Source: Escherichia phage AV108. Taken from it: 64,000 nucleotides of DNA. A model generated the notes under the pieces. It was not told the DNA's origin, ran no database searches, and saw only the letters and a program-made list of their open reading frames with translations. Positions 1 through 3,246 of the stretch are shown piece after piece; the first letter of the stretch is position 1; each line of letters starts with the position of its first letter. The stretch is from the sequence record OR352938.1, one strand, 5' to 3'. A program made the translations under genes and the position numbers.

Positions 1-174
1 TTTTTGAAATTAATTCTGCTTTGATTTCGCAGAGAACATCTAAAGATTTCTCGTCACCCGCTTTTGCTGCTTCTGCTTGCATTTTTGAAATGGCTTCAAT
101 GTCAGTGCAATTATAAGCCGCTTGAACTTTAGCTATTGCGATGATTGCCGATTCGATGGTTAAGTGTTTCATGT
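1..174 (-). CDS. hypothetical protein, partial (3' end runs off the window start)
   Basis: ATG at 172-174 preceded by GGAG RBS and promoter at 205-234; frame open to position 1. Confidence 0.4.
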
Positions 175-204
175 TTGATTCTCCTTTCGTTTCGGTATGT
201 GTGC

Positions 205-234
205 ATTATAGGGGATCACCGATCCCCCTGTCAA
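205..234 (-). promoter_or_regulatory. sigma70-type early promoter (TTGACA-N18-TATAAT on minus strand)
   Basis: + strand attata at 205-210 and tgtcaa at 229-234; spacer is the palindrome GGGGGATCGGTGATCCCC with two GATC sites. Confidence 0.6.
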
Positions 235-241
235 CAATTTT

Positions 242-760
242 TTAGTTATTTTTTAATTGCTCATCTTGCAATAGGGCAATCACATGCTGGCGATGTTCTT
301 CCGATTGAGGCACACCGAAAAAGTTTGTTTTGTAGAAATACTCTAATCGGTCTTCTCGTGTGCTCTCTTCCATCATGATCGCGGGTAGTCCGAGATTTCG
401 GAAACGTCGCTTTTCTGCTGGCGTAAAATCACTGTAATACAACATAGAATCATCATTACAAGCAATGCTAAACTCATCCTTCATAAAGGAGAATATTGCG
501 TTTAAACGCTGTTTACCGTCCACGATTTCGATCTCATAGCGAGAGCCATCATCAATCTTAGCCATTGCGATAGCACCAACCGGAAAATCATTAATCAGGT
601 TTTCGATAAACATACGTTTGTTTTCGGTGTCCCATACTAAAGGACGCTGATAATCTGGGTTCATGTTGATATAGCCATCTTCTAACCATGCATCATAAAC
701 AGAGATGACAAAGTTTTTAGTATTGGTATAGTAACGGCGTTTAGGCGTTAAACGGTTCAT
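242..760 (-). CDS. DUF262/ParB-like nuclease-domain protein
   Basis: DGxQR-type motif (IVDGKQRLNAI); ORF track 242..796, likely start is the ATG at 758-760 (MNRLTPK) with AGGAGA RBS, abutting the upstream gene stop. Confidence 0.5.
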   Translation of the reverse strand: MNRLTPKRRYYTNTKNFVISVYDAWLEDGYINMNPDYQRPLVWDTENKRMFIENLINDFPVGAIAMAKIDDGSRYEIEIVDGKQRLNAIFSFMKDEFSIACNDDSMLYYSDFTPAEKRRFRNLGLPAIMMEESTREDRLEYFYKTNFFGVPQSEEHRQHVIALLQDEQLKNN

Positions 761-761
761 G

Positions 762-1094
762 TTATAGTCTCCTGAATGGATCATCACGTAAATCAATATC
801 TTTTAAGAACTCAACCCATGAATGCCGGATATTGTTCTTAATTCTCCAGATAAGCGCAGGGATTGAACGCTCTCCCATCTGGAAGTATGGATCATATGAT
901 CCGTATGCCCAATATGCTACTACAATTCCACAATCAGCGCAATAGTATTCTATTTCACTTGCTGGCGACCAAAGTCCATCAATATGATCGGTGATCTTGC
1001 TTTCGATGTTATGGCTATGACAATCAGGGCAACGGATGCAATGACCTTGTTTATCGTAATTTGACGTTAGCGAATACTTAAACAATCTCATCAT
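762..1094 (-). CDS. Cys/His-rich zinc-ribbon protein
   Basis: CxxC...CxxC pattern (CIRCPDC ... CADCG); start overlaps upstream stop (ATGA); function unknown. Confidence 0.5.
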   Translation of the reverse strand: MMRLFKYSLTSNYDKQGHCIRCPDCHSHNIESKITDHIDGLWSPASEIEYYCADCGIVVAYWAYGSYDPYFQMGERSIPALIWRIKNNIRHSWVEFLKDIDLRDDPFRRL

Positions 1095-1807
1095 AGATCC
1101 TTATTGGCTTCAAATACTGCCTTTGCGAATCCTCGCGGGGTAAGTGACCTTATAGTCTTTGTTTTCGTTCCTTTCCCGCCTAGCTTAGAATGCTGTTTAC
1201 TGTACCCTTTATTAATCTGCAACGGTTTCTTTTCTGGCATTATAAAGCCTTGTCCGGTCCATAAGCAAGTCTTTTTCGGGTACATATCACGGGCGGCGAT
1301 ATACTCAGGAAAAGTAGGATGTTTATCATCTTCCGGCAAATAACCGCCATATTCCCACGGATGGAACATGTAATCAGGCTTACGCCACATACTAGAGATA
1401 ACGCTTACAGGATTCTCTATCATGTAGGGAACTCCTAGCCATTCACCCAAATAAGCGGTTATTTTAGCTGCCCTTACATCATGAACTTGAATCAATGGTC
1501 CTTGTTCTAGTTTCTTTCGTTCAAAGTGCGCAGCGCCACTAACAGCTAAATTGGTGCACGGTGGGAATGCAAAGATAATATCCGGTTTCCCCCATTCAAG
1601 GTCCATTGCTCTTTCCAGCCAATTCAAATCAATCCATGTGTTTACATAGGTAATGTTTGGATGTTCAAATCTGGTATTATACTTTTTGTATGTACCGTGG
1701 TCGGCGTCATCCGCATTAAAGCAGACTACCTTATGACCTGCTTTAGCCCATTCTAGCCCCATTATCCCCGATCCGTCAAAGTTGCAGAATATTAATTTTT
1801 GTTTCAT
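1091..1807 (-). CDS. compact C5-cytosine methyltransferase-like protein
   Basis: motif I-like FDGSGIMG, motif IV-like FPPC, motif VI-like IENP, motif IX-like RSLTPR; only 238 aa with no obvious target-recognition domain. Confidence 0.5.
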   Translation of the reverse strand: MKQKLIFCNFDGSGIMGLEWAKAGHKVVCFNADDADHGTYKKYNTRFEHPNITYVNTWIDLNWLERAMDLEWGKPDIIFAFPPCTNLAVSGAAHFERKKLEQGPLIQVHDVRAAKITAYLGEWLGVPYMIENPVSVISSMWRKPDYMFHPWEYGGYLPEDDKHPTFPEYIAARDMYPKKTCLWTGQGFIMPEKKPLQINKGYSKQHSKLGGKGTKTKTIRSLTPRGFAKAVFEANKDL

Positions 1808-2049
1808 ATACGACCCTTTAACCCAGCACAGATTTTAGTCGGTTCTTTACCGTGCCACATTAAGTAAAGTCCGTTAATGCGACCTTGTTTTGTGTGTGAT
1901 TCTTTTCTGATCTTCTTATAGTGTCGTGCTTCCTCAACTGATTGTTTAGAATACCAATCATAAAGGAAGAGGCACAAAGGCCAACCATTAGCGGCCTTAA
2001 TGCAGTTATTAAGAAATTCCTTATTGCGTTTAATTAATTTTCTTTTCAC
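1804..2049 (-). CDS. hypothetical protein
   Basis: 81-aa ORF, start and stop coupled to neighbours by ATGA overlaps in the same operon. Confidence 0.45.
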   Translation of the reverse strand: MKRKLIKRNKEFLNNCIKAANGWPLCLFLYDWYSKQSVEEARHYKKIRKESHTKQGRINGLYLMWHGKEPTKICAGLKGRI

Positions 2050-2297
2050 GCTGCCCCCATTGGTTTGATAGTAACAGAATCTAAAAGACCTTTGTTAGCC
2101 AGTTCTCGGCAAGTTTTCAGATCCGCAACTTCCCAGCCAGCCGCAATCAGGTTATCAATCAGGCTGTTAGCAACTTCTTCGCTCATGAAAGAGCACTGTT
2201 TGCCGATGGTGTAGCGCACACGCTGTAATTTCAGTTTACGGAAGCCTTTAACGTTCAGGTCTTTAGCGATTTTCTTTGCGGTTTCGATGTTAACCAT
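2046..2297 (-). CDS. hypothetical protein
   Basis: 83-aa ORF; AGGAGAATCAAACA-ATG leader; promoter at 2338-2366. Confidence 0.5.
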   Translation of the reverse strand: MVNIETAKKIAKDLNVKGFRKLKLQRVRYTIGKQCSFMSEEVANSLIDNLIAAGWEVADLKTCRELANKGLLDSVTIKPMGAA

Positions 2298-2337
2298 TGT
2301 TTGATTCTCCTAAGTGGTATCTCGTCTTGATGGTTGT

Positions 2338-2366
2338 ATTGTAGGGGAGTTATCCTCCCCTGTCAA
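2338..2366 (-). promoter_or_regulatory. sigma70-type early promoter
   Basis: tgtcaa at 2361-2366 (TTGACA), TACAAT-like -10, 17-nt palindromic spacer GGGGAGGATAACTCCCC. Confidence 0.5.
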
Positions 2367-2380
2367 CACTTTTTATAAAA

Positions 2381-2548
2381 TTATTTGTTAATTTCTGGTG
2401 CGTTGCTAGGATAGTAACCTTCTTTAACTCCGAGGTATTTCGCAACCATCCCTACAATCTTCTGTGCTACTACAATGTCAAATTTAAGATAATCTTCGCC
2501 GTGGGTTTCAATGATATATGCTTCACATGCTGCTTTAGTCTCGAACAT
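2381..2548 (-). CDS. small protein (55 aa), copy 1 of a duplicated gene
   Basis: ATG at 2546-2548 with GGAGAATCAAA leader, TAA at 2381-2383; translates MFETKAACEAYIIETHGEDYLKFDIVVAQKIVGMVAKYLGVKEGYYPSNAPEINK; below the ORF-track size cutoff. Confidence 0.5.
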   Translation of the reverse strand: MFETKAACEAYIIETHGEDYLKFDIVVAQKIVGMVAKYLGVKEGYYPSNAPEINK

Positions 2549-2581
2549 TTTGATTCTCCTATTTAGTTTCGTTATGTGTGC

Positions 2582-2610
2582 ATTATAGGGGATCTCCCGA
2601 TCCCCGTCAA
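2582..2610 (-). promoter_or_regulatory. sigma70-type early promoter
   Basis: attata 2582-2587 and cgtcaa 2605-2610; spacer palindrome GGGGATCGGGAGATCCCC. Confidence 0.55.
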
Positions 2611-2624
2611 CAACTTTTTTAAAA

Positions 2625-2906
2625 TTATTCGTGATTAGTTTCGATGTTGTGTATTTTGCACCAGTTCAGCCAATCGCCAAGATCCTGATAGTTGATGCTT
2701 TTATCTGCTGCCATCGTTTTTGTCTTGATACCCATATGTGCGTTATGGGTAAGCATTTTTACAGTGAACTCAATTTTATCGCCTTTAGCTTTAACATCAA
2801 CCAGTTTGGTCCACTGGCTACCAGCGCCTCGAATGTTCATACCAACGATGTTTCCGATGTATGCTTCTTTGTTTTTCAGGATTTCGGTTGCTTTGATGAA
2901 TTTCAT
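2625..2906 (-). CDS. hypothetical protein
   Basis: 93-aa ORF with GGAGAATC RBS; own promoter at 2940-2968. Confidence 0.55.
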   Translation of the reverse strand: MKFIKATEILKNKEAYIGNIVGMNIRGAGSQWTKLVDVKAKGDKIEFTVKMLTHNAHMGIKTKTMAADKSINYQDLGDWLNWCKIHNIETNHE

Positions 2907-2939
2907 TTTTGATTCTCCAGTTCGTTTCGGTATGGGTGT

Positions 2940-2968
2940 ATTATGCTATGTTCTTACTTTGGTGTCAA
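2940..2968 (-). promoter_or_regulatory. sigma70-type early promoter
   Basis: tgtcaa 2963-2968, CATAAT-like -10 at 2940-2945. Confidence 0.5.
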
Positions 2969-2976
2969 CAACTTTT

Positions 2977-3246
2977 TTAGATATTTTCAGAAATAAATTT
3001 TAAAACTTGACGTAAATGTTTCTCATCTTTGATAGTCGCCGGAAGTTCTTCTTTTACTTCCTGTGCAAGATAGATATTTCCGTTCCAAGTGAAAGATCCG
3101 TCTTCGTTTACGCGATAGCTGAACATCCACTCGCAATCATTTTCGATTTCATATACACACAGAAGGGTGTAATCGTTAAAGCTATTGATTTCAAGGTCGA
3201 AGCCGTGACGTTTTGCAAAGTTGGTAGTGGTTTTAGTCAGCGCCAT
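2977..3246 (-). CDS. hypothetical protein
   Basis: 89-aa ORF, AGGAGAATCAAACA-ATG leader, promoter at 3287-3315. Confidence 0.55.
   Translation of the reverse strand: MALTKTTTNFAKRHGFDLEINSFNDYTLLCVYEIENDCEWMFSYRVNEDGSFTWNGNIYLAQEVKEELPATIKDEKHLRQVLKFISENI

Follow-up and report, generated by a model that had tools for sequence, protein, structure and literature searches.

The first kilobases of a 64,000-nucleotide stretch of DNA from Escherichia phage AV108 (sequence record OR352938.1; the whole stretch is referred to as the window) carry five minus-strand genes, here named A to E, which are confirmed as one five-gene early cassette between two 'promoter-early stem-loop' (PeSL) elements. Gene C encodes a compact phage Dcm-type DNA cytosine-C5 methyltransferase and gene E a minimal ParB-DUF262 domain standing alone. 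The block is probably best read as a PeSL-bounded accessory cassette in a hyperplastic region of a Krischvirus genome, in which protein C would be an active methyltransferase, protein E a nucleoside triphosphate (NTP)-binding domain, and the five genes independent of one another. Nothing in the cassette is categorically new, and its promoter architecture is the published PeSL; what remains of interest is the part played by the stand-alone DUF262 protein, together with the target motif of methylation by protein C.

Cassette layout and PeSL elements

On sequence identity, the window is assigned to Krischvirus, the RB49-like 'pseudo-T-even' group of Straboviridae: its first 3 kb are 98–99.4% identical to about 57 Krischvirus genomes (FL15, GEC-3S, Phi1, RB49, and others), and positions 1–3000 are 97.8% identical to Krischvirus SAP (OZ034687.1). 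The cassette and its borders are made up as follows, in the direction of transcription.

2338–2366, minus strand: upstream PeSL element; sigma-70 early promoter TTGACA-17-TACAAT, 11 of 12 consensus positions; annotated as promoter in GEC-3S.
2297–2046, minus strand: gene A; 83 amino acids (aa), phrog_14908.
2049–1804, minus strand: gene B; 81 aa, GTG start, phrog_7065.
1807–1091, minus strand: gene C; 238 aa, compact phage Dcm-type DNA cytosine-C5 methyltransferase, phrog_757.
1094–762, minus strand: gene D; 110 aa, zinc-ribbon protein, phrog_2993.
760–242, minus strand: gene E; 172 aa, stand-alone minimal ParB-DUF262 (GmrSD_N) domain.
205–234, minus strand: downstream PeSL element; TTGACA-18-TATAAT, 12 of 12 consensus positions; annotated as promoter in GEC-3S.

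The start of gene E is placed at an ATG with AGGAG upstream, where its homologues also begin; a mechanical list of open reading frames extends it to a TTG at 796. An earlier note on this DNA, made from the sequence alone, had described all gene junctions as ATGA overlaps. All four are indeed tight, with the literal ATGA at two of them (B/C and C/D); A/B is a GTGA overlap and D/E reads TAAcATG, with a gap of 1 nt. The RefSeq annotation of GEC-3S has the equivalent five minus-strand coding sequences (CDS), with a promoter 5' of the first and another right after the last; the middle CDS is named 'DNA methyltransferase' and the remaining four 'hypothetical protein'.

The promoter proposed earlier at 2338–2366 is present exactly there and heads the early unit. 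A GGGG...CCCC stem-loop forms its spacer, and the stretch 5' of the promoter is AT-rich. The downstream promoter (234–205), likewise AT-rich upstream, wraps around a GGGGGATC...GATCCCC stem-loop just past the stop codon of gene E; this element closes the cassette and opens the next transcription unit. Four copies of the composite element are found on the minus strand (5893–5865, 2610–2582, 2366–2338, and 234–205), each built from an AT-rich stretch, TTGAC(A/G), a GGGG...CCCC stem-loop as spacer of 17–18 nt, and TA(T/C)AAT. Judged by this composition, the four are the PeSL elements of RB49 and phi1, in which a strong sigma-70-like promoter is combined with a stem-loop that terminates upstream transcription (Arbiol et al. 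2010, PMC2839356); in those phages PeSLs stand on either side of non-essential ORFans in hyperplastic regions and bring about modular shuffling (PMC2839356). The cassettes of RB49 and phi1 share with the present one the sigma-70 consensus promoter, the GGGG...CCCC stem-loop, the AT-rich upstream stretch, and the position at the flanks of accessory genes; they differ in holding a single ORFan, whereas five genes stand inside one PeSL pair here.

Shuffled sequence yields at least as many promoter-like matches as the region does, and the argument for the promoters therefore rests on the quality and position of the sites. A scan of the five-gene block (2297–242) gave no convincing terminator and a single, weak internal promoter-like site (TTGACG-18-TAGAAT at 1779–1750, 10 of 12 consensus positions), which lies within the first codons of gene C and is probably a chance match.

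Some Krischvirus relatives (MIZ2, MIZ3, MIZ6, ELT3, ELT4, and SAP) align to positions 1–3000 of the window in two pieces. In these the aligned region spans 3,079–3,535 bp as against 3,000, corresponding to insertions of about 80–535 bp, which are consistent with PeSL-mediated gain and loss of small ORFans.

Gene C and the compact phage Dcm family

The 238-aa protein was earlier credited with the C5-methyltransferase motifs I, IV (FPPC), VI (IENP), and a IX-like motif (RSLTPR). All four stand where they had been placed, as listed here with their conservation in an alignment of 42 homologues of 57–65% identity.

1766–1780, minus strand: motif I, F10-D-G-S-G14, S-adenosylmethionine (SAM)-binding glycine loop; F10, G12, S13, and G14 invariant.
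1553–1564, minus strand: motif IV, P82-P-C84-T, catalytic Pro-Cys (FPPC, residues 81–84); P82-P83-C84-T85 invariant.
1409–1417, minus strand: motif VI, E131-N-P133, ENV-type (IENP, residues 130–133); E131-N132-P133 invariant.
1130–1150, minus strand: motif IX-like, R220-S-L-T-P-R-G226; R220, S221, L222, R225, and G226 invariant.

Because they are invariant across the 42 homologues, the motifs are not chance matches; the residues for which a conservation check had been proposed, those of the SAM-binding loop (F10, G12, S13, G14) and the catalytic cysteine (C84), are all among them. Conservation is complete at K178 too, and at least 90% at K179. The family profile places motif I against the corresponding motif of M.HaeIII and DNMT3B.

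Residues 1–237 fall in the PHROGs family phrog_757, 'DNA methyltransferase' (E 3.2e-90). At E ≤1e-3, 7,315 database proteins are homologous, nearly all of 225–250 aa; an exhaustive hidden Markov model (HMM) search with the family gave 1,976 cluster representatives, and homologues occur in 1,520 phage records. Carriers among the records listed include Warwickvirus tonijn (a T1-type siphovirus), Kagunavirus, Campylobacter phages, Krischvirus, many Klebsiella phages of about 50 kb, and Escherichia myoviruses of 137–142 kb (FV3, FFH2). The impression of a 'truncated Dcm-like fold' is thereby corrected: protein C is a full-length, normal member of one of the commonest families of phage methyltransferases.

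Sequence comparison with solved structures was weak. A direct search of protein C against the PDB returned nothing meaningful, and the family profile gave only matches of E ~1, to M.HaeIII and DNMT3B, over motifs I–IV; the fold is therefore settled by structure comparison. The AlphaFold2 model (predicted local distance difference test (pLDDT) 92, predicted template modelling score 0.90) has M.MpeI, DNMT1, M.HaeIII, DNMT5, and Dnmt2 among its matches, and protein C is accordingly predicted to adopt the three-dimensional fold of C5-methyltransferases. The outcome of the profile searches proposed for the 238-aa protein is ambiguous when taken alone, with phrog_757 on one side and, on the other, the Pfam and NCBIfam results given below.

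The earlier remark that the protein leaves no room for a target-recognition domain is nearly right, as about 35 residues separate the motif-VIII strand (180–185) from the motif IX helix in the model. This minimal, DNMT3-like design is common to the whole compact family and no defect; a conventional target-recognition domain is indeed absent from it. Residues 150–179 are a highly conserved family-specific insert (EYGGYLP..D.HP.FP, residues 152–167). The canonical motif VIII QxRxR was not found in protein C, in which strand 180–185 is preceded by K178-K179, nor was the motif X GNAVPP, as RSLTPRG passes directly into the last helix (model helices 214–220 and 225–235). Compared with M.HhaI and M.HaeIII, protein C is about 90–100 residues shorter and without canonical QxRxR motif VIII or a separate GNAVPP motif X; compared with the C5-methyltransferases of PF00145 in general (catalytic domain of DNMT3A/DNMT3B, M.HhaI, M.HaeIII), it scores below the Pfam gathering threshold and carries the family-specific insert.

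The compact phage Dcm family is already known and partly CHARACTERISED. In a study of retron Ec86 (10.1101/2023.08.16.553469; cited as published in Cell Rep 2024;43:114857), every escaper isolated from phage K42 (KarlJaspers/Bas06-like Drexlerviridae) was missing a 711-bp gene that encodes a 'Dcm-like' C5-methyltransferase; DNMT3A gave the best superposition with the AlphaFold model of this enzyme, and C82, E128, K175, and K176 were assigned as catalytic or substrate residues. Expressed from a plasmid, K42 Dcm raised 5-methylcytosine (5mC) in the multicopy single-stranded DNA (msDNA) of Ec86, as measured by LC-MS (liquid chromatography coupled to mass spectrometry), and the quadruple mutant, with C82 among the altered residues, did not; altering CCTGG in the msDNA stem abolished defence (10.1101/2023.08.16.553469). 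One member of the family is a proven trigger of retron Eco1/Ec86.

Comparison with K42 Dcm was made through the orthologue of Warwickvirus tonijn (gp41, a 711-bp 'DNA methyltransferase' gene, 236 aa), in which residues 82, 128, 175, and 176 are C, E, K, and K, coinciding with those of K42 Dcm. Protein C is 55% identical to tonijn gp41 over the full length (E 1e-93), with C84, E131, K178, and K179 aligned to, and corresponding with, K42 Dcm residues C82, E128, K175, and K176. Both belong to phrog_757, are of one length class (236 and 238 aa), and have the same predicted DNMT3-like fold; they differ in the sequence of region 191–213 and in the phage that carries them, a T1-type siphovirus for the K42 type and a T4-type myovirus here. 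Protein C, which RefSeq already annotates as DNA methyltransferase, is a new member of this known family with experimental support. By analogy, we infer that it is an active DNA C5-methyltransferase, because a homologue type of 55% identity makes 5mC, the catalytic residues are aligned, and the gene is under purifying selection (ratio of non-synonymous to synonymous substitution rates (dN/dS) 0.09 against SFHK24; 17.5 synonymous and 6.5 non-synonymous differences).

If active in this way, Cys84 of the PPC motif would attack C6 of a flipped-out cytosine, Glu131 of the ENP motif would protonate N3, and the methyl group of SAM would be passed to C5; the DNA would be recognised through the conserved 141–219 region in place of a normal target-recognition domain. 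A short motif, possibly CCWGG-like, would be methylated in replicating phage DNA (and in host DNA). Such methylation may partially blunt type II and similar restriction in hosts without matching methylation, at the probable cost of exposure to methylation-sensing defences such as retron Eco1/Ec86.

Several results pull the other way. Pfam PF00145 (DNA_methylase) matches protein C with 14.6 bits, below the cutoff of 22, and over residues 10–93 only; no NCBIfam model matches it (nor A, B, or E). The experimental support for formation of 5mC comes from the homologue type and not from the Krischvirus protein itself, and the CCWGG specificity of K42 Dcm was carried over by analogy from E. coli Dcm, not mapped (10.1101/2023.08.16.553469). 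RB49 is described as a phage with unmodified DNA, cut by HpaII and NheI, and modified nucleosides were undetected in Krischvirus TB34 by high-performance liquid chromatography and mass spectrometry (PMC13390438). In the window (1–64000), CCWGG occurs 26 times where about 67 are expected (ratio 0.39), a depletion not expected if the phage fully protected its CCWGG sites. From the cutting by HpaII it follows that CCGG is not methylated in RB49, and from RB49 and TB34 together that virion methylation, if present, must be sparse. RB49-like phages are usually taken as unmodified, yet their genomes encode a C5-methyltransferase that appears intact and is under purifying selection.

The K42 Dcm experiments were made in dcm+ MG1655, in which msDNA from the empty vector was low in 5mC (10.1101/2023.08.16.553469). 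With CCWGG assumed as the site, this low level in a dcm+ host suggests that the true target or substrate preference of the compact family may differ from that of host Dcm. Type II methyltransferase models of PADLOC match protein C at E 3e-4.

Other sites are also depleted in positions 1–64000, with observed/expected ratios of 0.10 for CCCGG, 0.29 for CGATCG, and 0.45 for GGCC, as against 1.03 for GATC, which is not avoided. Seven 6-bp palindromes are absent where a Markov model predicts 20–55 copies: GAATTC (EcoRI), AAGCTT (HindIII), GGATCC (BamHI), AGTACT (ScaI), ACCGGT (AgeI), AGCGCT (AfeI), and TCCGGA (BspEI). This depletion and absence of palindromes indicates that the phage relies heavily on site avoidance; as read from the site counts, protein C, whatever it protects, appears not to have relaxed selection against CCWGG.

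The DNA of Krischvirus SAP was reported in 2026 to carry 5-hydroxymethyl-2'-deoxycytidine (5-hmdC) together with glucosyl- and gentiobiosyl-methyl-deoxycytidine, whereas TB34, 99.96% identical to it, has canonical cytosine; no pathway genes for the SAP modification were found (PMC13390438). Gene C was considered as the source of the glycosylated 5-hydroxymethylcytosine (5hmC) of SAP and rejected: a conserved gene cannot explain the difference between two phages so nearly identical, one of which is unmodified. A mixed lysate may lie behind the SAP and TB34 discrepancy.

It is very improbable that protein C is something other than a plain DNA methyltransferase, whether acting on nucleotides or RNA, transferring another group such as carboxymethyl, or feeding a hypermodification pathway such as that of the 5hmC-glucosyl bases of SAP. 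Against such roles stand the formation of 5mC on DNA by the homologue type of 55% identity, the canonical cytosine of TB34, the cutting of RB49 DNA by 5mC-sensitive enzymes, and the Pfam and PHROGs searches, in which neither a TET protein nor a glycosyltransferase was found among the cassette proteins. With protein C read as a DNA methyltransferase, gene C predicts sensitivity of Krischvirus to methylation-sensing defences, which is relevant to host range in phage therapy.

Gene E, a stand-alone ParB-DUF262 domain

The DUF262/ParB-like protein with a DGKQR motif recognised earlier holds up, and the suspicion that the match might be spurious is dispelled by the Pfam score, the invariance of the motif, its alignment to solved DUF262 proteins, and the predicted fold. 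The motifs that define ParB-DUF262 are QRxxxW, DGxQR, and FxxxN (PMC12065111); those of protein E are listed below.

632–649, minus strand: motif I, Q38-R-P-L-V-W43 (QRxxxW); Q38, R39, V42, and W43 invariant.
506–520, minus strand: motif II, D81-G-K-Q-R85 (DGxQR), predicted nucleotide-phosphate binding centre; invariant.
323–337, minus strand: motif III, F142-Y-K-T-N146 (FxxxN); F142 and N146 invariant, followed by an invariant GVPQSEEH.

Invariance refers here to a shallow alignment of 8 sequences, as the word-indexed database search returned only 7 proteins; DGKQRL is invariant across all 8. Pfam PF03235 (GmrSD_N) matches protein E with E 5.9e-20 and 72.7 bits (cutoff 33.2; profile positions 7–78 of 199). 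Its best PADLOC match is Menshen NsnA (E 6e-20, model positions 48–187 of 385), followed by PD-T4-2_A. Solved DUF262 proteins, BrxU (7p9k) among them, are matched by a profile built from protein E and its homologues, with DGKQR aligned to their DGQQR. The best AlphaFold2 model has pLDDT 85.7; owing to an alignment of only 8 sequences, three of the five models came out poor. With this model Foldseek gave ParB-CTPgammaS, Noc, PadC, and BrxU, with a probability of 1.00 and template modelling scores of 0.42–0.51. Protein E is thus predicted to have a ParB/sulfiredoxin-type fold; it shares little sequence identity with host DUF262 proteins of solved structure (12% with BrxU).

DUF262 domains serve as sensors of DNA modification in GmrSD, SspE, and related systems (PMC12065111). 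The type IV enzymes GmrSD, BrxU, and SspE and Menshen NsnA share with protein E the ParB-DUF262 NTPase-like domain, N-terminal in them, and the motifs QRxxxW, DGxQR, and FxxxN; protein E differs in being phage-encoded and expressed early, and in having no ParBDB or middle domain, no DUF1524/HNH nuclease, and no NsnB or NsnC partners. It ends 26 residues past motif III, and its homologues are likewise short (161–176 aa); the middle DNA-binding domain ParBDB and a DUF1524/HNH nuclease were not found in it by Pfam, which gave GmrSD_N only. Without these two domains protein E cannot be a GmrSD-type enzyme. In Menshen (NsnABC), NsnA has a ParBDB domain and is followed by the genes for the ABC ATPase NsnB and the effector NsnC; the next gene downstream here is a small open reading frame behind a new promoter. 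As judged from its domain content, protein E is a bare sensor or NTP-binding domain, neither a GmrSD-type enzyme nor Menshen NsnA. It most likely binds an NTP through the DGKQR centre and acts through contacts with protein or DNA.

This domain-only architecture is uncommon, being shared by about 300 phage records (302 records with homologues of gene E). Gene E is under strong purifying selection (dN/dS 0.05). A literature search gave no paper addressing stand-alone phage DUF262 proteins.

The most attractive specific idea for protein E is that of an anti-defence decoy, which would bind an NTP, pair with host DUF262 sensors (GmrSD/BrxU, SspE, Menshen NsnA, PD-T4-2, Dazbog), and poison them, so covering the liability that arises from 5mC made by the phage itself. 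The role is plausible because a ParB_n-only GmrS1 has been reported to work with a GmrSD2 partner, so that domain-only proteins can pair with full enzymes. It would also suit a protein that consists of the sensor and dimerising domain only, with motifs intact and no effector; that is expressed early and under strong purifying selection; and of which the best match among defence models is NsnA. Against the role, a literature search found nothing on such proteins, identity to BrxU is as low as stated above, and several large phages carry a homologue of gene E with no compact Dcm in its vicinity. We consider the decoy role rather unlikely on balance; as a family, the stand-alone ParB-DUF262 proteins of some 300 phage genomes are reasonable candidates for a decoy-type anti-defence factor.

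Probable independence of the five genes

A functional coupling of the Dcm-like protein, the DUF262 domain, and the zinc ribbon, as suggested in the earlier note, is unsupported by the distributions and contexts compared here, because the genes are distributed separately and none are co-located in nine contexts outside Krischvirus. Homologues are counted in 1,520 (C), 302 (E), 274 (D), and 171 (B) phage records. In seven of the loci outside Krischvirus (five with DUF262, two with the methyltransferase), tblastn with all five proteins found the seed gene only. Homologues of A, B, C, and D were not found by tblastn within 3.5–6 kb in the five DUF262 contexts (Cronobacter phage Cronuts, Salmonella phage S.Typ Adana, Klebsiella phage K45PH128C2, Erwinia phage Hena1, and a 28-kb metagenomic contig), nor were those of A, B, D, and E in the two methyltransferase contexts (tonijn and a 152-kb metagenomic phage). 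Among the contexts compared, gene E neighbours gene C in Krischvirus only.

In vB_Kpn_K45PH128C2 (OY978796.1, 6001–6495) the DUF262 match is opposite in strand to the 'virion structural/tail fiber' pseudo-CDS that covers it; the annotation around it looks misplaced or mis-oriented and was not used.

The cassette arrangement is conserved in about 56 Krischvirus records. The genus-wide adjacency of C, D, and E, with the tested genes under purifying selection, makes a genus-specific functional link possible, and the neighbourhood sample is one of 9 non-Krischvirus contexts and not a full co-occurrence statistic; both points tell against independence. An integrated module, with the DUF262 domain and the zinc-ribbon protein acting jointly with the compact methyltransferase, would also fit the tight packing and co-transcription of the genes and the part that DUF262 domains play in sensing DNA modification; the DUF262/zinc-ribbon pair might then supply DNA targeting to a methyltransferase short of a target-recognition domain, or the set might form a modification, anti-restriction, or exclusion unit. 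Such a module is nevertheless unlikely, given that the methyltransferase family functions without partners (plasmid-borne K42 Dcm alone methylates msDNA), that the other cassette genes are not near in tonijn, the 152-kb metagenomic phage, or the five DUF262 contexts, that the distributions of C, E, D, and B are very different, and that PeSL cassettes are known to assemble unrelated ORFans (PMC2839356).

A more specific combination is also improbable: a Krischvirus-specific 'methylate and shield' unit, in which the Dcm would mark DNA with 5mC and protein E (possibly with D) would be a nucleotide-gated decoy. The decoy would neutralise DUF262-based or methylation-sensing host defences (GmrSD/BrxU, Menshen, PD-T4-2, and perhaps retron Eco1 of E. 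coli B) to which a phage bearing 5mC or expressing Dcm would otherwise be exposed; if this were true, protein E would represent a new class of anti-defence proteins, one that stems from the very sensor domain of the defences.

Five independent accessory genes on one promoter are the most economical reading, given the distributions, the contexts, the activity of K42 Dcm alone, and PeSL shuffling. With the five genes so read, host sigma-70 RNA polymerase would start at the upstream PeSL promoter (2366–2338) right after infection and transcribe all five, and the stem-loop of the next PeSL (234–205) would attenuate or end the transcript; the sequence and published work on PeSLs are the basis for these steps. 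Genes A, B, and D would be independent small accessory genes, and all five would have become adjacent through modular PeSL shuffling, not as one machine.

Protein D carries the CxxC...CxxC zinc ribbon attributed to it earlier (C22xxC25...C52xxC55; window 930–1031, minus strand), with a Pfam match to a TFIIB-type zinc ribbon at E 5.7e-4, under the Pfam cutoff. Its homologues include those of Nonagvirus 9g, of phages labelled Felixounavirus, and of others; in 9g, the one gene D context that was read, the gene lies among hypothetical genes between those for DNA primase (upstream) and dUTPase (downstream), and no methyltransferase or DUF262 neighbour was found. Gene D was left out of the dN/dS computation, as its annotated start in SFHK24 differs by one codon. 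Gene B has homologues in T5-like phages and in other T4-like ones, where the contexts are unrelated; in one T5-like phage the homologue belongs to the tRNA region. Gene A (dN/dS 0.14 against SFHK24) has a weak match to positions 721–785, in the C-terminal part, of the PADLOC model RT_UG35 (DRT; E 2.4e-5), and its product may have a domain in common with a defence reverse transcriptase, in the C-terminal part of the latter.

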